A DNA stretch of 64,000 bases, from IMG/VR virus record IMGVR_UViG_3300045988_183322. The stretch is one strand, 5' to 3'. Under the pieces are notes generated by a model. That model worked only from the letters and a program-made list of their open reading frames with translations, was not told the DNA's origin and ran no database searches. The position numbers were made by a program, and so were the translations under genes. The first letter of the stretch is position 1. Every line of letters begins with the position of its first letter. Source of the stretch: a virus. This document shows, piece by piece, positions 1,479-35,448 of this stretch.

Positions 1479-2282
1479 CTAACCTATAAAAGCTCTATAC
1501 TGACAGCTTTCTGAATTAAAATATATAGCATTCTTGGCCTTTGAATTGAATTCCGCATAAAAGTCCAATCCATTCTCTTTTACTTCATCAATTATTGAAT
1601 TGATTTTCCAACAAGGGTAAACAAGCCTCTTTTGGCCGTAACGGATTTCTTTTTTTGACAAAAACTCAACTTCACTTTTATGATATTTCCAAACAATCTT
1701 TATGATAGAATGAATGCAATAATCAATCCACCTTCTCTCTTGTAAATATTTTTTAGACTCGGATAAAAAAGGCGGTAAAATCAATTTTAATTCATCCCAT
1801 CTCAAGCGGAAAATGCCGCCTAAAGTCCCATATCCATTTTCAACAATATCATAAGCCCATATTGGTTTATAATTTGCGACTTCTTTTCTCACATAAACAT
1901 TTGAAATATATGGATGCCGAAGTCTATTGCGATATTTCGTCTGAATAGACAGGTTTTTCAAATTAAGAAAATACCCTTTCAAAAGTTCTTTCGCTTCATC
2001 CTCATGGATATATTCTTCCCAATTAATTGAATTTACAATTTTAACAAAATCGCATCGTTTCTTTATCGGAGCTTTCGCAAGAACATAGTATGTTTTATCT
2101 TTATGTTGAAAAACAAATGGGCGAGACCTGTTTCTCTTGTAAAACTCTTCTGACGAAAAAGAAATTCCTAACTCTCCAATAGCGGTTTTTACTGTACGAT
2201 GTGATACCCCCAAATAGTTAGAAGCTTGTCGTAAAGAATCAAAAACCTTTCCATCTATAAAACATTTCTTAGCTCCAATCAC
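1479..2282 (-). CDS. Hypothetical protein with N-terminal HTH (homing-endonuclease-associated DNA-binding-like)
   Basis: FDSLRQASNYLGVSHRTVKTAIG resembles a NUMOD/HTH module. Confidence 0.3.
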   Translation of the reverse strand: MIGAKKCFIDGKVFDSLRQASNYLGVSHRTVKTAIGELGISFSSEEFYKRNRSRPFVFQHKDKTYYVLAKAPIKKRCDFVKIVNSINWEEYIHEDEAKELLKGYFLNLKNLSIQTKYRNRLRHPYISNVYVRKEVANYKPIWAYDIVENGYGTLGGIFRLRWDELKLILPPFLSESKKYLQERRWIDYCIHSIIKIVWKYHKSEVEFLSKKEIRYGQKRLVYPCWKINSIIDEVKENGLDFYAEFNSKAKNAIYFNSESCQYRAFIG

Positions 2283-2782
2283 CTGATTCGCCTAAAATTA
2301 ACTTGCAAATTAGCGGCCCCCATTCTTTTTCTTTTTCAGGATTTGAAATCTTTGAGAATAAAAGCCATAGCATTGGCGGCTCTTCTTTCAAGAAGAAGTG
2401 GAGAGCTTTAGACACATACTCAAGAGAATCGAAACAATCCCCTATGCTTTTAATTCTTTCTAAAGCCCATAAAAAAACATAAAGTTCCCGCCCAAAAAAT
2501 CTATCAAAATAAATATCTCGCCCCGGCGTTTTAGAAAATTTTACCCCTTTAGTAGAACAGTCATCCTTTTTCATGCGTTCCTTAAAACTTCTCTCTATTT
2601 CAAGAGTAGCCCCGGGAATGGTTTTAGTTAAATGCGGATAATAAAAGGTAAGCTGTTTACATGGCGGCGCACTTACGCAGTCGGAAGGAAGAACCTCATA
2701 AAAAAAGGCGAAATCATGATTTTTGAACGTCCTTAGCATGAAACCATGTCCATTCATCAAAAATCCAAAATCTATTGTTTCT

Positions 2783-3613
2783 TTAATCTCTGTTCTCATT
2801 TTTTAAATATATTTTATCTTCTCCAAAAGAAGGATTTTCCCATCTAATTAAATATTCATTATCTTTCATATAAATTAGTCTCCCATAATGAGAATAACTT
2901 TTCCAATCAAAAACCGAAACCAATTTTCTTTTAAGGTCAAAAATGCAATTCCCTTCTAATTTTCTAAATTTCCAATAAGTATTATAATTATGACTTTTTA
3001 CAAAATCCTTTTCGTATTGAGAAATCCATTTTTCTGAAAATTTATTTCCATGAATGAACCACGAAAATACAGAATCAAAATTATAGAGAAAAACATTAAT
3101 TGGCAAATCATCAACCTTCTCTAAAAGACTTTCATCATTTTCTCTTGCTGGAAAAGATTCTGCATTGAAAATCTTTTCTATTTCTGGCTTAATATATTCA
3201 CAAAATAATTTAACTTTGCTAATTTCTCCACCAAAAAAACACCCAGCATATTTAGCACCCCAACTCGTCGCTCTCAACATGACAAGCTCTTTTTCTAAAA
3301 TCTCTTTTGGGACGGGAGATTCAATTACATTATCAGAATCTAAATAGAAGATATAATCATAGCTTTGAAATTTCTCTAATACCTTAAGAAGATATAAATA
3401 TTTTAAATAATTGATGAAAGGCCATTTTTCTTCTTCAACTTCTTCAACAAAAACACTATCTATACTCTTTGCGAATTTTTTATAATTAGTAAAAAGAAAA
3501 AAATCTACATTCTCATTTAAAAAAAAATGCCTTTTATTCCGATTTATGGATTGTAGCCAAAAATCATAATATTGTTCTCCTAACGCAATTTGAACAACAG
3601 CTATTTTTTTCAT
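2783..3613 (-). CDS. GT-A fold nucleotide-sugar glycosyltransferase (GT8-like, FYLDSD DxD motif)
   Basis: N-terminal beta-strand MKKIAVVQIALGEQYYDFW and LDSD motif. Confidence 0.4.
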   Translation of the reverse strand: MKKIAVVQIALGEQYYDFWLQSINRNKRHFFLNENVDFFLFTNYKKFAKSIDSVFVEEVEEEKWPFINYLKYLYLLKVLEKFQSYDYIFYLDSDNVIESPVPKEILEKELVMLRATSWGAKYAGCFFGGEISKVKLFCEYIKPEIEKIFNAESFPARENDESLLEKVDDLPINVFLYNFDSVFSWFIHGNKFSEKWISQYEKDFVKSHNYNTYWKFRKLEGNCIFDLKRKLVSVFDWKSYSHYGRLIYMKDNEYLIRWENPSFGEDKIYLKNENRD

Positions 3614-4296: not shown

Positions 4297-5177
4297 ATTT
4301 TTGTTTTATCTATTCTCTCATGTGGGAATGAGTATACCGTAAAATAAAAATATTGTCAAGTACTAATTGAAATCTTTTATTCTGCCTTTTTCTTTCAAGC
4401 TTCTCAAAAGATGCCTGAATTCTTTAGTGACAATATCAACAAGTACTTCTGTATCATCTTCTTCTTCAATTCTAAGAATACCAGCATTAGAGCCGTACTT
4501 TCTTCTATTTTGTCTCCATGTATTGTATTTCTTTTTCATACAAGCCTTTCTATAGACCAAAAACAATGTTTCACTTCCTCAAGCGTATTTAATATCTCAA
4601 CACTAGCTAACCCATCCGCTTCTAAAGCGTCTATTACATCCGTTAAAAGATTTTCTCCTTCTTGACATTCTTCTTCAATCTCTTTCCCCTCATCAGGAGA
4701 AAGAGCATACCAATTTTTATATTCATCAATTCGCTCTTTTACGACATTAGATATTTCTTCTTCGCACTCCTTACAAGGACTAACTAAAATATTCCCATTT
4801 TTATCCACCCTTTCTATTTCAAGAGGATAAATTTGATGCCCTTTTTTGCTACAAAAAATCATCATAAATAATAAGTTTTGTTTTTGAAATTATCTTTAAT
4901 GAAAATATGGGGTTTTCTATTCAAAACTAACAATATTTTTTTGAAGAAGTTAGTCGGCACTAATTTCATATTCGCAGAAGCACCACGTCTATCTGAGGTT
5001 CTTACGCAAGCATATTTTGGTCCTTTAAAAGTATAGTAACCTATCCCATAAGCAAATCTTTTCGTTGCTCCATACTTCCTTAAAAGATTGATTGTATTAT
5101 GCCTCAAATAAAGTTCATGACTGTAAGCTACAGAAAATCCTAATTTTATGCAAGTATTTTTAAACCAAGCTTCATGA

Positions 5178-6885: not shown

Positions 6886-7654
6886 CAGCCTTCCGACTGG
6901 TGGATTGAAATCGCACTAGAAAAACTTAGCCTCTTTTTTTATTCTTATTGTATTTATTTTGATTATTCCTGCTTTCTTCTTCGTCAATCTTATCTTCCTG
7001 TTTCGCATCATTTAATTTAACAGGCTCAGCAGGTTCAATAGATTTAACAGATTCAATGGTTTTAGCCTCTTGTCCCATCTTATCTTTTTCTTTTTGAGAT
7101 TCCAAATCAGAAACCAATTTCTCAAGTTCCTTATAAGATTGAGAATCTGTTCCGCATTCATATGCAAAAGTTCCAAGGATGTTTTTGAGGGCTTTAATAA
7201 TCTCTTGTTGTACCATAACTTTGTAATTTTCTATTTTTACACTAATCCGACAACTCATTTTGGAGTTCTTCAATAACTTTCAATTCTTTCTTATATCTTT
7301 CTTCGCCGTATTCTTTAGAAAGATATAAAAGTTCCCGTTTTTTAGTGTCTAAATTTATCAGAGAAATTTGTTTTTTAAATCCACTTATCCGCATGATAAA
7401 CCTTCTCCATCCAATCAACATGTCTTCGCATTTTTCCGCACAAAATGTTGCTATTGGAACAACTATAGCAAAAATAAAAGCGAAAATAATTAAAGGGAAG
7501 ATAAATATGAAAGAAAAATGATATAGGAAGTTAGTCCATCTTTCTGTATTTTGAGCTTTTTTTGTAATATTTACTTTTACTTGCCTGTTCCCATTATTTA
7601 AGTGAAACTTACAGCAAGTTCTCTTCAATTTTTCCTTTATTTCTATTTCTTCAT

Positions 7655-8824
7655 TCATAACATCTTTTTATCGATTTCTCTAGCAAACTCAATCAAAAAC
7701 TCTTTAATTTTCTTATCTTCCGAAAGTTTTTGGAAAAGAACAGTTTCATGAGAAAAAAGATACCTAGAGATAAATTTGTTGAAAGTCTCCATAATAGAAA
7801 AAGCTTCTGACGACCATCCCCAATAACTTTTGGAACTTATTCCTAACTCGCTAGGAAGTTCTAATTCGCTTTGCAACAAAAGTTTGATTCCCTCCTTGCT
7901 AGGAACAATGTGGCAAATATCAATTCCCATCCCTAAAGCGGCAACCCCAATTAACTCACCTCTGTGGCAATGTTGAGGATTAAACTCCGCACTCAAGAAA
8001 CAAATTCTCTTTTTATTTTTAATAGCTTTATCACAAAGCGCTTTCAGCCTATTATTTTTTTCACTATTCCATATTTTTTTATATATTACATGACTATTTT
8101 CATCAAATGAATCTCTTTGATTAAAACTTACTTCTGAAAACATATTGCCACACCAAGCATATCCAATATTATTCTCATGCAGTGCTTCGTTGAGAGCGTC
8201 TGTCCCATAAAATTTATTATGACTTATTGTAGAAGCCCTAATATCTATTAAGATTTCAATTCTATAATCCTTCAATAAGCTTAAGAAACCCTGCGGTCTT
8301 AAATTGCCATAGCCAATAGAATATATATAAGATTCTTTTTTAATTAATTCATCTCTTTTTCGAGAACGAATTTCCATAAGAAACTTCCCCAAATAATTTT
8401 CCCCTTCTCCTTCGCAAACACCTAAAAACGTGTCGCCATATGAATTATCAAAAATAAGTTCATTTTCTCCTGTATTTAAAAGCTTCTCTAGAAAGAATTC
8501 ATCAGAAAACTTTTGGGATAACAAAATGAATAAGATATCTTTCTTATTGGCTTCAAAGAAAGGGTCTATAAAAGATGGAATAACATCTTTCCATTCATTA
8601 AACTTCTTTTCTGCTTCTCCTGCCGACAAGAAGGAAAAAGCGTATCTCAATCCTCTGTCTCTAATTTGAGAAGCTAAAAAAGCAGAAGTTACGTTCGTGT
8701 ATTTTATTCCTTCATATTCAATAAAAGGAACTGGCTCCCCATTATTGCCAATTTTTTCTGTTGAATTATTAAGAAACTCGCTACCTTGAGAAAAAGAGTT
8801 AATCATGAATTTAGAACCAAGCAT
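7655..8824 (-). CDS. Two-domain protein: N-terminal NADAR (YbiA/DUF1768-like) domain fused to C-terminal DUF488
   Basis: N-terminal LLNTGENELIFDNSYGDTFLGVCEGEGENYLGKFLMEIR matches the NADAR core; C-terminal YSIGYGNLRPQGFLSLL...IEILIDIRA...ICFLSAEFNPQHCHRGELIG matches the DUF488 pattern (CHR motif). Confidence 0.5.
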   Translation of the reverse strand: MLGSKFMINSFSQGSEFLNNSTEKIGNNGEPVPFIEYEGIKYTNVTSAFLASQIRDRGLRYAFSFLSAGEAEKKFNEWKDVIPSFIDPFFEANKKDILFILLSQKFSDEFFLEKLLNTGENELIFDNSYGDTFLGVCEGEGENYLGKFLMEIRSRKRDELIKKESYIYSIGYGNLRPQGFLSLLKDYRIEILIDIRASTISHNKFYGTDALNEALHENNIGYAWCGNMFSEVSFNQRDSFDENSHVIYKKIWNSEKNNRLKALCDKAIKNKKRICFLSAEFNPQHCHRGELIGVAALGMGIDICHIVPSKEGIKLLLQSELELPSELGISSKSYWGWSSEAFSIMETFNKFISRYLFSHETVLFQKLSEDKKIKEFLIEFAREIDKKML

Positions 8825-11784: not shown

Positions 11785-13287
11785 TTAGACAGTTATATCT
11801 GATGTAATAATTTCCTTGTCCCCAATCGCCCACATAGCAATATCTGAAAGATAATAAATAGTAGAAACGCTTTTTGTTTCTAACTCTTTATATTCAGCTT
11901 CGGTCAACTCTACAAACTTAATATACCGCTGGTCATTGTCTATTCGCGTATAAACTGCTCTATCATCATCATATAGAGTTCCAATTACTGGTGGGGCAGA
12001 TATGGCTGTTCCACCAGTATCTGACTTAATTTCTATCGTTTTATCCAAATCTCCACTTGAATCAGATATATTTAAAGCGCCACCACTAAAACTTCCAATC
12101 CCAAGAACTATGAGAGATTGACTGACTGTTACGCCACTATGGGAAGTAATGCCACCTCTAACAAGAAGAGAAGACTCACAAGTTACACCACCATTTAAAT
12201 TAACATTAAATCCTCCACCTTGAACCACACCTTGAATCCCAACCAGACTTGTAGTAGTATATTGATACAACCTCATGTCATGATTAGGACTATTTTTATT
12301 TTTGAAAATAAATAAATCTATTTTTATCGGGGATAAACCCGTAATATCTGTCTTTAATTTATCTATTTCTAAAGTCTCTTGAATATTTACCGGAACTGCG
12401 ACATCTAATTCCGCCCCATTATCAGCTTCGATAACAGCATTTCCCGTTCCTGTACCATGAATTCGAACGGCATTTGTTCCAGAACCTAATGAAATTTGTT
12501 TGCCATCAGAAAGAACAATCCCATCTGTAAATGTTTTTATTCCACTAATATCGGAATTCCCCGTTTTAGAAACATATATCTCATCCGACATTTGCTTATT
12601 CATAACATCAATGCCCACAGGAGATTCTTTCGTGACTCTAGTCAAGCTATTGGTGAAATCATATGAACCAGAAATAGTCTGAGCATCAGAAGGGCTAAAT
12701 ACTGGAACGCTGTCTACTGCGCTATCAACATAACTCTTATTTGCCGCATCCATTAGTTGAACTGGCGCAGGTACACTTGGGGAGAGGAGGAAAGCTTTAA
12801 GCCCATCAATAGATTGATTCCCAGTAATTTTTACAGCTCCTGAAATCTGGTCATCCGTGTATTTTTTACTAGCATTTAACGAACAATCCACATAGTATTT
12901 ATTTGCGCTTTCTTGATTCTCTATGGGGCAAGGGACAAGAGGAGAAGAAGAAAATCCTTTCGTCCCACTAATTACTTGGTCAGAACTAATTGTTACAACA
13001 TCGCTTAAATCTACGCCTGTAGAACCAACTAATTCAAATCTATTCTCTTGTTCGAGCCAAATATATTCTTTAGATTGGTCTTCGCCAGAAGCATCAGTGC
13101 TGGGAACAAAATACAAAATTCCCGATTCTCCAACAGGAGGGAGTTCGTCTACAACCTTGGGAGTTAATGAATTTAATTTGGAAATTGCCGCCTCTAAATC
13201 TTCAACAGTTGCAAAATTACAAAAAAAAGGGATTTTCCCTTTTGCTGGGTGAAGAATATAACCTGTATTTTGAAAATCTTCTGACAT
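11785..13287 (-). CDS. Tail fibre / receptor-binding protein with phage tail-fibre repeats
   Basis: Reiterated motifs KYTDDQISGAVKITGNQSIDGLKAF, KSYVDSAVDS, ISGSYDFTNSL; Gly/Ser/Thr-rich beta-rich composition. Confidence 0.55.
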   Translation of the reverse strand: MSEDFQNTGYILHPAKGKIPFFCNFATVEDLEAAISKLNSLTPKVVDELPPVGESGILYFVPSTDASGEDQSKEYIWLEQENRFELVGSTGVDLSDVVTISSDQVISGTKGFSSSPLVPCPIENQESANKYYVDCSLNASKKYTDDQISGAVKITGNQSIDGLKAFLLSPSVPAPVQLMDAANKSYVDSAVDSVPVFSPSDAQTISGSYDFTNSLTRVTKESPVGIDVMNKQMSDEIYVSKTGNSDISGIKTFTDGIVLSDGKQISLGSGTNAVRIHGTGTGNAVIEADNGAELDVAVPVNIQETLEIDKLKTDITGLSPIKIDLFIFKNKNSPNHDMRLYQYTTTSLVGIQGVVQGGGFNVNLNGGVTCESSLLVRGGITSHSGVTVSQSLIVLGIGSFSGGALNISDSSGDLDKTIEIKSDTGGTAISAPPVIGTLYDDDRAVYTRIDNDQRYIKFVELTEAEYKELETKSVSTIYYLSDIAMWAIGDKEIITSDITV

Positions 13288-20566: not shown

Positions 20567-20945
20567 TGGTCCTGACGAAGGGATTTGAACCCTCACTCCT
20601 GTAAAGGAAACGGATTTTCTTGCTACTACTAATCTCTTAGTCCGATATTTCTATCGTTGTAGTCTGGACTATATCTTCATCTGTTCTAGATGCAACGTGC
20701 ATAGTCTCTGAACCTTCTTCATAAGTATTTATACTTTTAGAAGCTCGGATGCTGATTGACCAATCTCGATTATTTTCAAGCATTCACGCTTACCATTTCT
20801 AGTTACGTTGTAGCTAATTAAGCTCTAAGGCTATTCCAGCAGTTCTCGTTGTTCCATTGCTAGATTCCTCTAGCAAGGCTCTCTAACTCATTATATTCTA
20901 ATGAGTTATAAAAGTCCGCAGCGTCTGCCATTCCGCCACGTCAGG
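20567..20945 (-). tRNA. tRNA-Leu (anticodon TAA) interrupted by a group I intron; exons 20945-20912 and 20618-20567 (CCA encoded)
   Basis: 5' exon CCTGACG-TG-GCG-GAATGGCAGA-CGC-T-GCGGA-CTT (3-bp D-stem and D-loop typical of bacterial tRNA-Leu); 3' exon AAAA-TCCGT, long variable arm TTCCT-TTAC-AGGA-GT, T-arm GAGGG-TTCAAAT-CCCTT, acceptor CGTCAGG-A-CCA; spliced anticodon arm GGACUU/AAAAUCC identical to cyanobacterial/plastid tRNA-Leu(UAA). Confidence 0.7.
20619..20911 (-). ncRNA. Group I self-splicing intron (about 293 nt) inserted between U34 and A35 of tRNA-Leu(UAA)
   Basis: Preceded by exon U, ends in G (omega-G) directly before AAAAUCCG; contains CAGAGACUAU (20710-20701) and AUAGUC (around 20668) able to form P7 (GACUAU/AUAGUC), resembling the GCAGAGACUCGACGG core element of tRNA-Leu group I introns; no ORF inside. 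Confidence 0.6.
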
Positions 20946-22219: not shown

Positions 22220-22295
22220 TCGTCCAGATGGGAATCGAACCCATGACCCCTCACTTATAAGGCGAGTGCTCTTTGCCAATCTGAGCTACTGGACA
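22220..22295 (-). tRNA. tRNA-Ile (anticodon TAT, reads AUA); CCA not encoded
   Basis: Acceptor TGTCCAG/CTGGACG, T8A9, D-stem GCTC/GAGC, anticodon stem CTCGC/GTGAG, loop CTTATAA, T-arm ATGGG-TTCGATT-CCCAT. Confidence 0.75.
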
Positions 22296-32277: not shown

Positions 32278-32943
32278 ATGTTCAATTTTATTGCAGAAAC
32301 GTCAATTCATGACACAATCATTTCCATTGCGAACTTGATTGGGTACATCATTGCTGTAGGGGTTGGAGGCACTGGATATCATTATTTAAATAAATCCAAA
32401 AATAATTCAGAGAAAGAAAAAGGGGTAATAAATGAAATTTCATCTTCTATTATAAAGAATAAAATTATACAGTCTTGCCTAAGAGATTGCAGACAGTCTA
32501 TCGATGCTGACCGCGCTCTGATTTTCTTATATCATAACGGGGAAATATTTGCAAACGGAAATCATCTACTGAAAGTGTCATGCGCTTTTGAAAGCCTTAA
32601 CACGGGAATCACAAGCGTTTCTCCAAACTATCTAAATATCCCATATGTTATATTTAGAAAATGGGATGTAGGAAAAAAAGGAAATCCTTCTGTTTTTCAT
32701 ATAAGTAAAAAAAATGATAATAATGAAGACCCACTTCTTGTTCAAATGCTAATAGAAGGTGGGGTGGAAAGTAAATATACTTTACCATTAGATAATGAGT
32801 TCGGGGCCAATATTGGTTTCATTTCATTCCATTATTTAAGGGAAACAAATTTGAATGAAGATGAAATGAGAACATTAAAAACAATACCTCATAAAATAGC
32901 AAGAGTTTTAAGCTCTTCCGCAATTGAAGAAAAGAAAAAATAA
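32278..32943 (+). CDS. Membrane-anchored protein (single N-terminal TM) directly upstream of the endolysin; possible lysis accessory
   Basis: Hydrophobic segment IANLIGYIIAVGVGGTGY; position in the plus-strand lysis cassette. Confidence 0.3.
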   Translation: MFNFIAETSIHDTIISIANLIGYIIAVGVGGTGYHYLNKSKNNSEKEKGVINEISSSIIKNKIIQSCLRDCRQSIDADRALIFLYHNGEIFANGNHLLKVSCAFESLNTGITSVSPNYLNIPYVIFRKWDVGKKGNPSVFHISKKNDNNEDPLLVQMLIEGGVESKYTLPLDNEFGANIGFISFHYLRETNLNEDEMRTLKTIPHKIARVLSSSAIEEKKK

Positions 32944-32955
32944 TAAGTTGAATAT

Positions 32956-33684
32956 ATGAATTTTACTTATAATGTTAATTGGAAACCAATTCAAAAGAAA
33001 CTTAATATTGATGCTGATGGATATGCAGGTAAAAATACATTAAAGGCATTGAGTAATTATTTTGGTTGTGATGAAAATTGGAAATCTATCCAACTTGCAA
33101 TTGGAACAACAGCAGATGGTATTGCAGGACAAAATACTATTTCAAAAATTATGGAAAAGATGGGGATAGAAACTTTTTCGAACTCTAATATATTGCCGCA
33201 ATCCAAAGTCCGCACAAATAAATCTGTTTATGGAAGAGCAGGGGATGAAAGCAATTTAGTAAATGTTCCTGTTCCAACCAATTATCCTTTAAAGTATGAA
33301 GGAAAACCAGTTAAGACTATTCGAATTCATAAATTAGTAAAGGACAATCTTTCGAAAGCCCTACAAGAGATTGCAGATTATTATGAAAATAAATATGGTT
33401 CAGTTGAGGAAGCCGTAAAAAAGGTTCCGGGAATCTATAATTATTCTGGCTCCTACAATTTTAGAAAAACAACTGCTGGTTCTGTTTATAGCATGCACGC
33501 CTATGGTTTAGCTTTGGACTTTGATGCCGAAAATAATACTTATCATATGAAAAAAGATAAGGCTCGCCTTGCCAGACCAGAATATAAAGAGTTTTTTGAT
33601 ATTTTAGAAAAATATGGATGTTATTCTTTAGGCAGAAGGTCTAATTTGGATTGGATGCACATACAATTTTCAGATTGGAATTAA
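32956..33684 (+). CDS. Endolysin: two PG-binding repeats + M15 (VanY-type) zinc D-Ala-D-Ala carboxypeptidase/L-Ala-D-Glu peptidase domain
   Basis: Repeats DADGYAGKNTLKAL / TADGIAGQNTISKI; catalytic SMHAYGLALD = SxHxxGxAxD. Confidence 0.7.
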   Translation: MNFTYNVNWKPIQKKLNIDADGYAGKNTLKALSNYFGCDENWKSIQLAIGTTADGIAGQNTISKIMEKMGIETFSNSNILPQSKVRTNKSVYGRAGDESNLVNVPVPTNYPLKYEGKPVKTIRIHKLVKDNLSKALQEIADYYENKYGSVEEAVKKVPGIYNYSGSYNFRKTTAGSVYSMHAYGLALDFDAENNTYHMKKDKARLARPEYKEFFDILEKYGCYSLGRRSNLDWMHIQFSDWN

Positions 33685-33756
33685 ACGAGTTATGAATATT
33701 ATGTCATGGCTTGTATTTTTTAATGCACATTCACTAAGGTTTTGCTGTAATATCTC

Positions 33757-35448
33757 TTGATGAAACAAGAGATAAGAAGGCTATTTAAAGGAATACATCA
33801 TCCAAGAACTTTACATAAAATACTCAAGGACAATCCAGAGATAGTTGAGTACGCCAAAAGTGAAATAGAGAAATATTCGTATTATGAAAAAGTCGGATAT
33901 TATATCATATCTATAGCAAACGACATTGAGATAAAAAAGTGCCCTGTTTGTGGAAAAGAATTAAGCTATACTCAATGCATAAAGAATAAAAAGATATTTT
34001 GTAGTAGGTCTTGTTCAGCAACATATCAATTTTCTCATAAAAAAGATGCCTCTAAAAAAAAGCGTAGTACAGTAAAGTTACCTGCTCTTCCTTTATTTCC
34101 AATAAATGAAAAGGTAACATTGAGTAAACTAAGATGCCTGTATGCAGGAGCCGATATTACAAGGCTAAGATATGTAATAGCAAAGAACTCTTCAATCTTA
34201 TGTTTTTGCCAAAAAGCATTAGAAAAACATAAGGAATATCAAACAGAACAAATATTTCTTTACTGCATAATAAATAATCTAAAATTAAAAAAATGTAAGT
34301 TATGTGGAAAAAAGATGAACTATTATAAGTCCTATACTAGGCCAACATTTTATTGTTCATCAAAATGTAGTCACGCATCTTCTTCTTATAAAGAAAAGCA
34401 ACAAAAAAGTCATAACGATAGAAAATACGAAATATTAGTTCAGAGAGCCAGAGAAAAAAATTATGGAGTAATTACTCTTCGAGATGATTATAAGACTTCA
34501 AATCAAATTGAACTAAAGTGCTTAAAATGCAATAAAGTTTTCTCATCTCCATTATTGAATATATACAGAGACATGAGATGCCCATCTTGCGATAAAGTCT
34601 CATCTTTTTCATTCGAGAAAAAAATACGAGGCTTTATCTATTCATTAAACATAGATTTTACTTACAATAAGAAAGTTCTTCCTGATAAAAAAGAATTAGA
34701 TATATTTGTTCCTTCTAGAAATATCGCTATTGAATGCGATGGTCTCTATTGGCATTCATCTAAAAATGGAAAAGATAGAAACTATCATCTAAAGAAAACA
34801 AAACAGTGTGAAGAAAAGGGGATTTTTCTAATCCATATTTTTGAAGACGAATGGAGAGAAAAAAATAAAATTGTCAAGAATCGAATTAAATATATTCTCG
34901 GCAAAGCATCTTATAAGATAGGGGCAAGGGAATGCCGTATATCTCCAATTTCTAATGATGAAAGTAAAAAATTTTTAGATAAATATCATATTCAAGGAAA
35001 TGTATCTTCTCCTGTGAGATATGGATTATTTAAAAGAAACAGGCTAATAGCTGTAATGACTTTTGGCAAAAGCCGCTTCAACAAAAATTATGATTGGGAG
35101 CTTCTTAGATATTGTACTATTCCTAATTTCAATATAATAGGTGGGGCTTCTAAATTATTAAATCATTTTAGAAACCATCATTCTGGTTCTATTATTTCCT
35201 ATGCAGATAAAAGATGGAGCGATGGAAATCTTTATAGAAAACTTGGATTTATAGAATTAAAAGACAGTCAACCAAACTATTTTTATGTCAAAGACATAAG
35301 AAGATTTTCTAGAAATCAGTTTCAAAAGCACAAACTCAAAGATATTCTTAAAAAGTTTGACCCACTAATGACAGAAAAAGAAAATATGCTTGCTAATGGC
35401 TATTCTATTATTTGGGATTGCGGAAATAAAGTGTTTTCTTTAGAATAA
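33757..35448 (+). CDS. Multi-zinc-ribbon protein with C-terminal DUF559/Vsr-like (ECDGxxWH) endonuclease-fold domain; possible homing-endonuclease-like gene
   Basis: Three CxxC...C/CxxC modules (CPVCGKE, CKLCGKK, CLKCNK...CPSCDK) then IAIECDGLYWHSS. Confidence 0.4.
   Translation: MMKQEIRRLFKGIHHPRTLHKILKDNPEIVEYAKSEIEKYSYYEKVGYYIISIANDIEIKKCPVCGKELSYTQCIKNKKIFCSRSCSATYQFSHKKDASKKKRSTVKLPALPLFPINEKVTLSKLRCLYAGADITRLRYVIAKNSSILCFCQKALEKHKEYQTEQIFLYCIINNLKLKKCKLCGKKMNYYKSYTRPTFYCSSKCSHASSSYKEKQQKSHNDRKYEILVQRAREKNYGVITLRDDYKTSNQIELKCLKCNKVFSSPLLNIYRDMRCPSCDKVSSFSFEKKIRGFIYSLNIDFTYNKKVLPDKKELDIFVPSRNIAIECDGLYWHSSKNGKDRNYHLKKTKQCEEKGIFLIHIFEDEWREKNKIVKNRIKYILGKASYKIGARECRISPISNDESKKFLDKYHIQGNVSSPVRYGLFKRNRLIAVMTFGKSRFNKNYDWELLRYCTIPNFNIIGGASKLLNHFRNHHSGSIISYADKRWSDGNLYRKLGFIELKDSQPNYFYVKDIRRFSRNQFQKHKLKDILKKFDPLMTEKENMLANGYSIIWDCGNKVFSLE

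Follow-up and report, generated by a model that had tools for sequence, protein, structure and literature searches.

The window analysed here, the whole stretch of 64,000 nucleotides (64 kb) from IMG/VR virus record IMGVR_UViG_3300045988_183322, carries on its minus strand two tRNA halves that are separated by 293 nt (Table 1). An earlier reading, made from the sequence only, had interpreted them as a tRNA-Leu(UAA) gene interrupted by a group I intron. The two halves, the pairing of their acceptor strands, and an insert that follows a U and ends in G are all present at the coordinates listed in Table 1, and ARAGORN in its intron mode and covariance models agree in placing a group I intron between U34 and A35. 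The locus very probably represents a phage-encoded tRNA-Leu(UAA) gene split at this position by a group I intron that lacks an open reading frame (ORF) and is predicted to be self-splicing.

Structure of the split gene and its intron

Exon 1 reads CCUGACG UG GCG GAAUGGCAGA CGC U GCGGA CUU, with GCGGACUU as its final letters. Exon 2 starts with AAAAUCCGU, continues with the T-arm GAGGG-UUCAAAU-CCCUU and the acceptor strand CGUCAGG, and ends in ACCA. The insert is preceded by U34, and its last base, G293 (20619), is followed by A35. When joined in silico, the exons form an 86-nt class II cloverleaf, the product anticipated in the sequence-only reading, which ARAGORN calls tRNA-Leu(taa). It displays the features of a class II tRNA-Leu, namely, a long variable arm, A73, a Leu-type 3-bp D-stem, and the anticodon UAA. 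On the genomic DNA, the intron mode reports 'Intron Length: 293, Insertion Position (34-35)'. At least 120 phage tRNA-Leu genes have an identical D-arm, UGGCGGAAUGGCAGACGC. The split gene sits among eight other minus-strand tRNA genes; it is overlooked by ARAGORN in the default mode, which finds no further tRNA-Leu in the 64-kb window.

Two covariance models identify the insert as a group I intron. Under permissive thresholds, Rfam RF00028 (Intron_gpI) aligns model positions 1 to 253 end to end with the insert (20912..20643) at 46.4 bits, with an E value of 1.3e-10 in a local search and 1.2e-8 when the whole window is compared with all 4227 families. The custom model R1, derived from 32 further split tRNA-Leu genes of bacteria and viruses with the window and its twin (L007) left out, scores the insert at 65.7 bits (E value of 3e-14). 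Neither R1 nor Rfam scans find a second intron-like element in the 64 kb.

The intron mode of ARAGORN is permissive. It made 183 calls in 128 loci, mostly artefacts that join adjacent tRNAs, so that split genes had to be reconstructed with a junction-specific parser. The call in the window could, in principle, be such a chance pairing of two tRNA-like halves, with no real gene behind it. However, the insert is independently assigned to group I by the two covariance models and by covariation (see below), and the same arrangement is found again in hundreds of loci, which makes a chance pairing exceedingly improbable.

The predicted secondary structure was evaluated on two alignments. The family alignment (32 members, window excluded) covers the anticodon stem and the helices P1, P2, P3, P4, P5, P6, P6a, P7, P8, and P9. 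In it, 94.8% of the predicted positions are paired, compared with 32 to 41% when the partners are slid, and 36 of the 56 pairs show compensatory changes. Because an insertion in P5 caused the 5' half of the window intron to be misplaced, both by MAFFT and in the R1-guided alignment, a separate alignment (A3) was made from 22 introns with the same core as in the window (type A). On these, the structure of the window intron is 95.9% paired versus 28 to 42% in the slid controls, with compensatory changes in 42 of 66 pairs; none of 500 shuffles equals its covariation values. The minimum free energy (MFE) fold has a z score of -3.35 and recovers the P1 extension, P2, P4, P5, P5b, P7, P8, and P9.

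The structure counted on the 22 related introns contains the group I core P3-P8 with the P3/P7 pseudoknot. The elements GACUAU and AUAGUC, which the sequence-only reading had assigned to P7, form pairs that stay constant across these introns (6 of the 7 pairs of this helix), and P8 is the sole hairpin between P3' and P7'. All the catalytic elements are present in the sequence, including the U34.G31 wobble, P7 with its bulged A, J8/7, and the terminal G293. The P1 pairs C32-G33, U33-A32, and U34.G31 are C-G, U-A, and U.G in all 32 family members, and a guide of the form GAGCC or GAGUC is found at the homologous place in the type-A relatives. Every helix of the P5 extension shows compensatory changes, which affect 15 of its 17 pairs in the 22 introns; the extension is also supported by comparison with the introns of Twort and AM1. 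An early pairing of this extension (hairpin AAGC/GCUU; C99-G113) was dropped, as the comparison favours ACG/CGU, ACUA-GAAA-UGGU, and AGC/GCU.

Table 1. Coordinates of the split tRNA-Leu(UAA) gene and of the predicted intron elements in the window (intron position n corresponds to window coordinate 20912-n)
Feature	Window coordinates	Strand	Composition	Basis
Complete split tRNA-Leu(UAA) gene	20567..20945	minus	379 nt of DNA, giving an 86-nt mature tRNA; CCA encoded	ARAGORN, genomic (intron mode) and in silico spliced
Exon 1	20912..20945	minus	34 nt; acceptor 5' strand CCUGACG, 3-bp D-stem, Leu-type D-loop, anticodon stem 5' strand GCGGA, C32 U33 U34	
Group I intron	20619..20911	minus	293 nt, without ORF	Rfam RF00028, custom model R1, covariation, MFE fold
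Exon 2	20567..20618	minus	52 nt; A35 A36 A37 A38, anticodon stem 3' strand UCCGU, long variable arm, T-arm, acceptor 3' strand, A73, CCA (20569..20567)	
P1	20877..20914	minus	exon C32-U33-U34 and intron U1-U2 with guide G29-G33 (20883..20879); U34.G31 splice-site wobble	read from the sequence
P1 extension hairpin	20907..20885	minus	8 bp, intron 5-12/20-27	MFE prediction
P2	20857..20876	minus	8 bp, intron 36-43/48-55, GGAA tetraloop	compensatory changes in 8/8 pairs
P3 (CAACG/CGUUG)	20693..20851	minus	intron 61-65/215-219; encloses P4-P6 and the P7 5' strand	compensatory changes in 5/5 pairs, 99.1% paired
P4-P6 domain	20713..20841	minus	intron 71-199: P4 71-76/157-162, P5 81-83/151-153, P6 164-165/198-199, P6a 169-172/192-195, P6b 176-180/185-189	covariation
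P5 extension	20762..20828	minus	67 nt, intron 84-150: P5a 90-96/141-147, 3-bp helix 97-99/131-133, P5b 104-106/124-126 and 109-112/117-120, GAAA cap	
P7	20666..20708	minus	guanosine-binding helix, pseudoknotted with P3; intron G204, G206-U211 with A240-C246; encloses P3' and P8	
P8	20692..20678	minus	intron 220-224/230-234	compensatory changes in 4/5 pairs
P9 domain and 3' splice site	20619..20663	minus	closing stem 249-253/286-290, P9a 256-260/265-269 (GAAA), P9b 272-275/280-283 (GAGA), tail AAG, G293	

Related split tRNA-Leu genes in phages and bacteria

Scans with exon-junction patterns reveal many split tRNA-Leu genes in uncultivated phages. The 3' signature of the window intron, GUCCAGACUAC...GURGUANG|AAAAU, is common to at least 240 viral and bacterial loci; searched as GUCCAGACYAC..GURGUANG|AAAAU, it is found in at least 120 loci of the viral and at least 120 of the bacterial genome collection. 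From these loci, at least 110 viral and at least 108 bacterial tRNA(UAA) genes split at 34/35 could be rebuilt, with introns ranging from 189 to 1087 nt. The junction GGACUU|..G|AAAAUCC is the same in the window, in Nostoc, and in at least 218 other genes. The insertion site is, as the sequence-only reading had recognized, that of the cyanobacterial and plastid tRNA-Leu(UAA), and it is shared with Nostoc and many other bacteria. Among the matches listed, introns of 600 nt or more are found in at least 35 viral and at least 11 bacterial genes, and nearly all long introns examined encode HNH endonucleases at the L1 position. HNH endonuclease genes are present in a third of the viral copies among the matches listed. 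In the window-type relatives, the HNH ORF is located downstream of the 5' splice site and ahead of the guide sequence.

The cultured Agrobacterium jumbo phage Atu_ph07 (MF403008.1, ~112890-113251; 695-1056 of locus L393, plus strand) has a split tRNA-Leu(UAA) gene with a 278-nt group I intron that R1 scores at 182.7 bits. The site carries no annotation. Another such gene is found in the 735-kb uncultured phage LR756501 (229.6 bits with R1). That match was at one point regarded as a chance one, with Rfam silent at E<0.01, a view that was overturned by ARAGORN, the junction sequence, and the family alignment. At that threshold, RF00028 missed this true family member (L003, 1070-1360, plus strand), which R1 finds. 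Because the general group I model misses a genuine member, Rfam annotation systematically under-reports these introns. With the default tRNA finders and Rfam both missing the split gene of the window, the only tRNA of the phage for its commonest Leu codons would stay unannotated. Atu_ph07 provides a cultured example of such a missed annotation and a ready experimental system.

Group I introns that interrupt genes for tRNAs are a classical kind of element, long known in bacteria. A 2014 review on group I introns of bacteria places every phage intron known at that time in protein-coding genes, despite the many tRNA genes of phages (PMC3984707). In the literature covered, which is incomplete, no phage tRNA gene is described as harbouring a group I intron; later surveys devoted to phage introns, to jumbo phages, or to tRNA introns of bacteria are silent on introns in phage tRNAs, as far as these texts are searchable. 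The closest case is the tRNA-Stop of Vibrio phage pVa5 with a 2.5-kb insert, an ARAGORN intron-mode call that its authors consider a possible artefact (PMC5746245). The phage-tRNA setting of a group I intron is therefore probably unreported. The sequence-only reading had described such introns as seldom reported; this holds for the literature, but they are not rare, being found in more than 100 viral contigs and in one cultured phage. The window locus and its more than 100 relatives contradict the confinement of phage group I introns to protein-coding genes (PMC3984707).

Several loci in the viral collection deviate from this pattern. At least 11 of them (L147, L154, L160, L172, L176, L182, L197, L200, and others) encode split tRNAs with the anticodon UAA in which the variable arm is short (class I shape) and the D-arm is not of the Leu type; such split tRNAs are found in none of the 108 bacterial genes among the matches listed. 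Two viral tRNA-Leu(UAA) genes, in L127 (minus strand, ~847-949) and L039 (plus strand, ~1914-2000), have inserts of just 20 to 24 nt at or beside 34/35, as in GGGACUU-CGAGAAUAGAUUCUCUCGCU-AAAAUCCC. These are far below group I size and could represent a remnant, another kind of intervening sequence, or a disabled gene. One viral contig with a split tRNA-Leu (L064) also encodes a ROOL RNA (RF03087, 290 bits; 7507-8092, minus strand) beside its tRNA cluster. In the viral tRNA cluster of L004, a near-threshold match to the hepatitis delta virus (HDV)-like ribozyme F. prausnitzii family (RF02682, 40.7 versus 44 bits; 4688-4758, minus strand) abuts a tRNA.

Affinities of the intron core

The intron of the Nostoc/Anabaena PCC 7120 tRNA-Leu belongs to class IC3, occupies the 34/35 site, and self-splices in vitro (PMC13011429 and references there). 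It shares with the window intron the host gene, the insertion site GGACUU|...G|AAAAUCC, a short P1 with a GAG guide, P2, the P3-P8 core, P9, and the absence of an ORF. The two differ in the P9 signature (GUCCAAUUCUC...GAGAAUG in Nostoc, GUCCAGACUAC...GUAGCAAG in the window) and at J6/7-P7, where Nostoc has GUGCAGAGACU. In addition, the Nostoc intron is without the P5 extension seen in the window and has a bacterium or plastid as its host rather than a phage.

Bacterial tRNA introns that share the 3' signature of the window intron have been classed as IC3 (PMC13011429 supplement). Members of this class are found in tRNA-Leu (34/35) of Acidobacteriota, Alphaproteobacteria, and others, as well as in tRNA-Ile2, tRNA-Arg, and tRNA-fMet (PMC13011429 supplement). 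They are similar to the window intron in the site, the 3' signature GUCCAGACYAC...GURGUANG, and the P2 and P9 hairpins with GNRA loops. The architecture of IC3 tRNA-Leu introns is recognizable in the window, with a GNRA loop on P2, a single P8, and a P9 closing stem that carries two GNRA-capped hairpins. However, the bacterial introns have a short P5 and the motif GYGYAGAGRC at J6/7-P7 (106 of 108 among the matches listed), whereas the window intron contains the 67-nt P5 extension, an extra P6b, and the sequence GUUCAGAGACUA, which appears in IA-type introns in a table of the same study (PMC13011429). The short P5 hairpin with GYGYAGAGRC is found in 207 of the 218 rebuilt members among the matches listed and is not found in the window. 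The introns of Atu_ph07 and LR756501, which are in the same family and at the same site of a phage tRNA-Leu(UAA), also have this ordinary IC3-like core (GUGUAGAGACU, short P5) rather than a Twort-like P4-P6 domain.

The intron in the pre-tRNA-Ile of Azoarcus is likewise compact and ORF-less, interrupts the anticodon loop, and bears GNRA tetraloops on P2 and P9. It differs from the window intron in its tRNA and insertion site, its bacterial host, and the absence of an extended P5. It belongs to IC3 and serves as a structural model system (PMC13168695).

In its P4-P6 domain, the window intron resembles the intron in nrdE of Staphylococcus phage Twort, to which it is 84 to 86% identical (84% over intron positions 67-186 in blastn), with 33 consecutive identical nucleotides in the P5 arm. 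Introns akin to that of Twort nrdE are found in ORFs of other phages, including the polymerase gene of Lactococcus phage AM1, Serratia and Aeromonas jumbo phages, and Bacillus phages PBS1 and SP-15. Like the window intron, they reside in phages and have relatives with HNH endonucleases. However, the Twort nrdE intron lies in an ORF, has extra hairpins between P3' and P7', and differs in P9 and in the guide. The extra helices of the P7.1/P7.2 type that characterize Twort and other IA2 introns are absent from the window, where P8 (intron 220-234) stands alone. The setting is also unlike that of the Twort/IA2 class, a tRNA gene with no ORF in the intron instead of a conserved protein-coding gene, often with a homing endonuclease ORF. 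Global pairwise identities of the subdomains fail to separate Nostoc, Twort, and the family members and were not used as evidence.

These affinities are compatible with an ORF-type intron of the IA2-like Twort nrdE family that invaded a tRNA-Leu loop independently, with the 34/35 site reached by convergence. Among deposited phages, the DNA similar to the region consists of the intron core only, and the best matches are group I introns in protein-coding genes (Twort nrdE, AM1 polymerase; 309 records in all); the J6/7-P7 sequence resembles that of IA introns, and the same subtype is present in phage protein-coding genes (see below). On the other hand, R1, a model made from IC3-type tRNA-Leu introns alone, recognizes the window intron and gives no match to the ORF introns of Twort and AM1. 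The single hairpin between P3' and P7' is also unlike Twort, and P2 and the entire P9 domain (GUCCAGACUAC...GUAGUANG) are of the tRNA-family kind. An independent invasion by an ORF-type intron is therefore unlikely, and a mosaic origin suits both sets of facts better than pure convergence. Judged by sequence comparison, the window intron seems to combine, as a mosaic, a scaffold of the tRNA type with a P4-P6 domain of the phage-ORF type. The proposal of the sequence-only reading that it might be a new member of the cyanobacterial lineage is too simple: P1-P2 and the 3' domain match the widespread bacterial IC3 tRNA introns, the P4-P6 domain is Twort-like, and J6/7-P7 is IA-like.

The window-type core, defined by the P5 extension and GUUCAGAGACUA, is found in 7 of the 110 viral and none of the 108 bacterial rebuilt genes among the matches listed. 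A pattern for the core only finds it in 27 viral contigs. There it occupies tRNA-Leu at 34/35, tRNA-Leu at 33/34 (three cases), and protein-coding genes. The 33/34 cases are all in viral tRNA-Leu(UAA) genes (L369, ~3010-3190, plus strand; L373, ~8168-8340, plus strand; L384, ~2140-2321, minus strand); their exon 2 starts with UAAAAUC, and the guide is shifted to GGUC, matching exon GACU. The ORF sites are codon 7 of dnaK, the NP|C motif of ribonucleotide reductase (RNR), and the NSL|YG motif of the family B polymerase (PolB), in L376 (plus strand, 3' splice site at 11948), L370 (plus strand, 3' splice site at 1772), L387 and L383 (both minus strand), and L371/L378/L380. The dnaK junction is exact: ATG AGT AAA ATT ATA GGG AT | T GAT TTA GGA yields MSKIIGIDLGTT (MSKIIGI|DLGTT), and the guide GUCCC of this intron is complementary to exon GGGAU. 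The guide thus covaries with the target, being GAGUC or GAGCC for 34/35, GGUC for 33/34, and GUCCC for dnaK. With the same core in tRNA and protein-coding genes, one intron type occupies both kinds of sites in phages.

Phage tRNA genes are often derived from the host, and split tRNA-Leu(UAA) genes bearing the 3' signature of the window intron occur widely among bacteria, metagenome-assembled genomes of Bacilli and Clostridia included. The phage could accordingly have captured a tRNA-Leu gene that was already split in its bacterial host, in which case the locus would have no bearing on intron mobility in phages. Against such a capture stand the window-type core, seen in viral but no bacterial copies among the matches listed, and the close relatives of the intron in phage protein-coding genes, and it appears improbable. 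A tentative reading, plausible yet short of an even chance, is that the window intron belongs to an undescribed phage-borne clade of mosaics (IC3 scaffold, Twort-type P4-P6) that moves between tRNA-Leu loops (34/35 and 33/34) and dnaK, RNR, and PolB genes by retargeting its guide.

If such a mobile clade exists, the divide between 'bacterial tRNA introns' and 'phage protein-gene introns' is no real barrier, and phages, in which at least 110 split tRNA-Leu genes are found, many of them encoding HNH endonucleases, could be vehicles that carry the tRNA-Leu intron across bacterial phyla. The subtype seen in the window directly connects the tRNA-intron and ORF-intron populations. Intron promiscuity, HNH homing at tRNA genes, and the phage-mediated spread of the 'ancient' tRNA-Leu intron thereby become testable with defined sequences. 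The compact ORF-less members could also serve as scaffolds for RNA circularisation tools like those currently made from the Anabaena intron.

Phage dnaK genes with an intron where the ATPase domain begins may merit attention in their own right. The ordinary IC3-like core is represented in ORFs as well: an 80% match to such a tRNA-Leu intron core lies inside an annotated capsid gene of Pelagibacter phage HTVC120P (MH598807.1, 19651-19807), which suggests, from sequence similarity, that the IC3-like type is also present in phage ORFs.

Predicted splicing and tRNA function, and the phage genome

Several observations weigh against a functional split gene or against the history proposed for it. The RF00028 match suggested as a check in the sequence-only reading is full length and significant across the window, but its score is below the curated gathering score of 50, and the default Rfam scan is silent. 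In P1, the exon contributes just three canonical pairs (CUU/GAG), after which comes an A.C mismatch, and two more A.C mismatches, A93xC144 in P5a and A249xC290 in the P9 closing stem, weaken their helices. The latter is the only unpaired cell of that stem among the 22 sequences. Both are paired in a sister genome, the 173-kb IMG/VR contig UViG_3300045988_183135 (99% identical over 7.3 kb), which contains the same split gene with three substitutions; its G93 and U290 restore the Watson-Crick pairs. No intron-less allele was found among near relatives, as a search via two flanking proteins gave the sister genome only. A scan for promoters and terminators at the gene shows 5 promoter-like sites versus 2.9 expected and no terminator, with none recognisable in the flanks; as no site stands out, the split gene is probably co-transcribed with its neighbours. 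Finally, the ancestry proposed below, with the loss of an endonuclease and exchange between tRNA genes and ORFs, is a scenario drawn from sequence comparison.

The mismatches, the short P1, the subthreshold RF00028 score, and the absence of an endonuclease gene that could keep the intron by homing might also point to a decaying relic that splices inefficiently, the locus being a tRNA pseudogene that persists by hitch-hiking. However, the core helices, the U.G wobble, P7, and the terminal G are all intact, and the exons form a flawless tRNA with an encoded CCA. The three substitutions relative to the sister genome all fall outside the catalytic core, and the window guide, GAGCC instead of GAGUC, is also seen in L245, L246, L381, and L386. 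Furthermore, the tRNA fits the dominant Leu codons of the phage. A relic is decidedly unlikely, and the A.C mismatches and the short P1 are mild warning signs for splicing efficiency, not for the identity of the intron.

The steps of splicing can be proposed from the established chemistry of group I introns. The gene would be transcribed together with the minus-strand cluster of tRNA genes and ORFs, and the intron would fold into P1-P9, with the exon end C-U-U docked on the internal guide G-A-G and the U34.G31 wobble marking the splice site. A free guanosine bound in P7 is expected to cut after U34; the terminal G293 would then enter the P7 site, and U34 would attack the 3' splice site. This would restore the anticodon loop CUUAAAA and release the intron, and end-processing would yield the 86-nt tRNA for UUA and UUG. 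These account for 40.3% and 19.2% of Leu codons, respectively, in the long ORFs of the window, so that the tRNA would serve about 60% of the Leu codons of the phage. As for the intron, it is best regarded as a selfish element that must be removed for the tRNA to function; a role in shielding the gene from HNH enzymes encoded by co-infecting phages is speculative.

The 8-bp P1 extension hairpin occupies exactly the site of the HNH ORF in the relatives, which fits the loss of an endonuclease. The window copy may accordingly be an endonuclease-less derivative of an HNH-carrying mobile intron family of phage tRNA-Leu genes. Its subtype would be the one that also resides in phage dnaK, RNR, and PolB genes, with an extended P5 arm shared with the Twort nrdE-like introns.

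The gene content of the window supports the phage nature of the genome that the sequence-only reading had assumed. It encodes Dda-like and DnaB-like helicases, a primase, a UvsX-like recombinase, an exonuclease, a 1510-aa PolC/DnaE-like polymerase, minor tail and J-like tail proteins, and a free-standing HNH endonuclease. None of 50,697 deposited phage records is closely related to it, and the polymerase is at most 32% identical to any of their products. The tRNA cluster (Arg-UCU, Lys-UUU, Thr-UGU, Gln-UUG, Ile-UAU, Leu-UAA, and others) is skewed to A-ending codons, which fits the 32% G+C content of the genome. Its tRNA-Ile (22220-22295, minus strand; ARAGORN) has the anticodon UAU, which is unusual for bacteria-type decoding. 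An HNH/homing-endonuclease-like ORF of 563 aa (33757-35448, plus strand; PHROG 3339/559, E value of ~1e-115) belongs to a group of three neighbouring plus-strand ORFs (32278-35448), in a region that is mostly minus-strand, and probably represents a free-standing mobile endonuclease.

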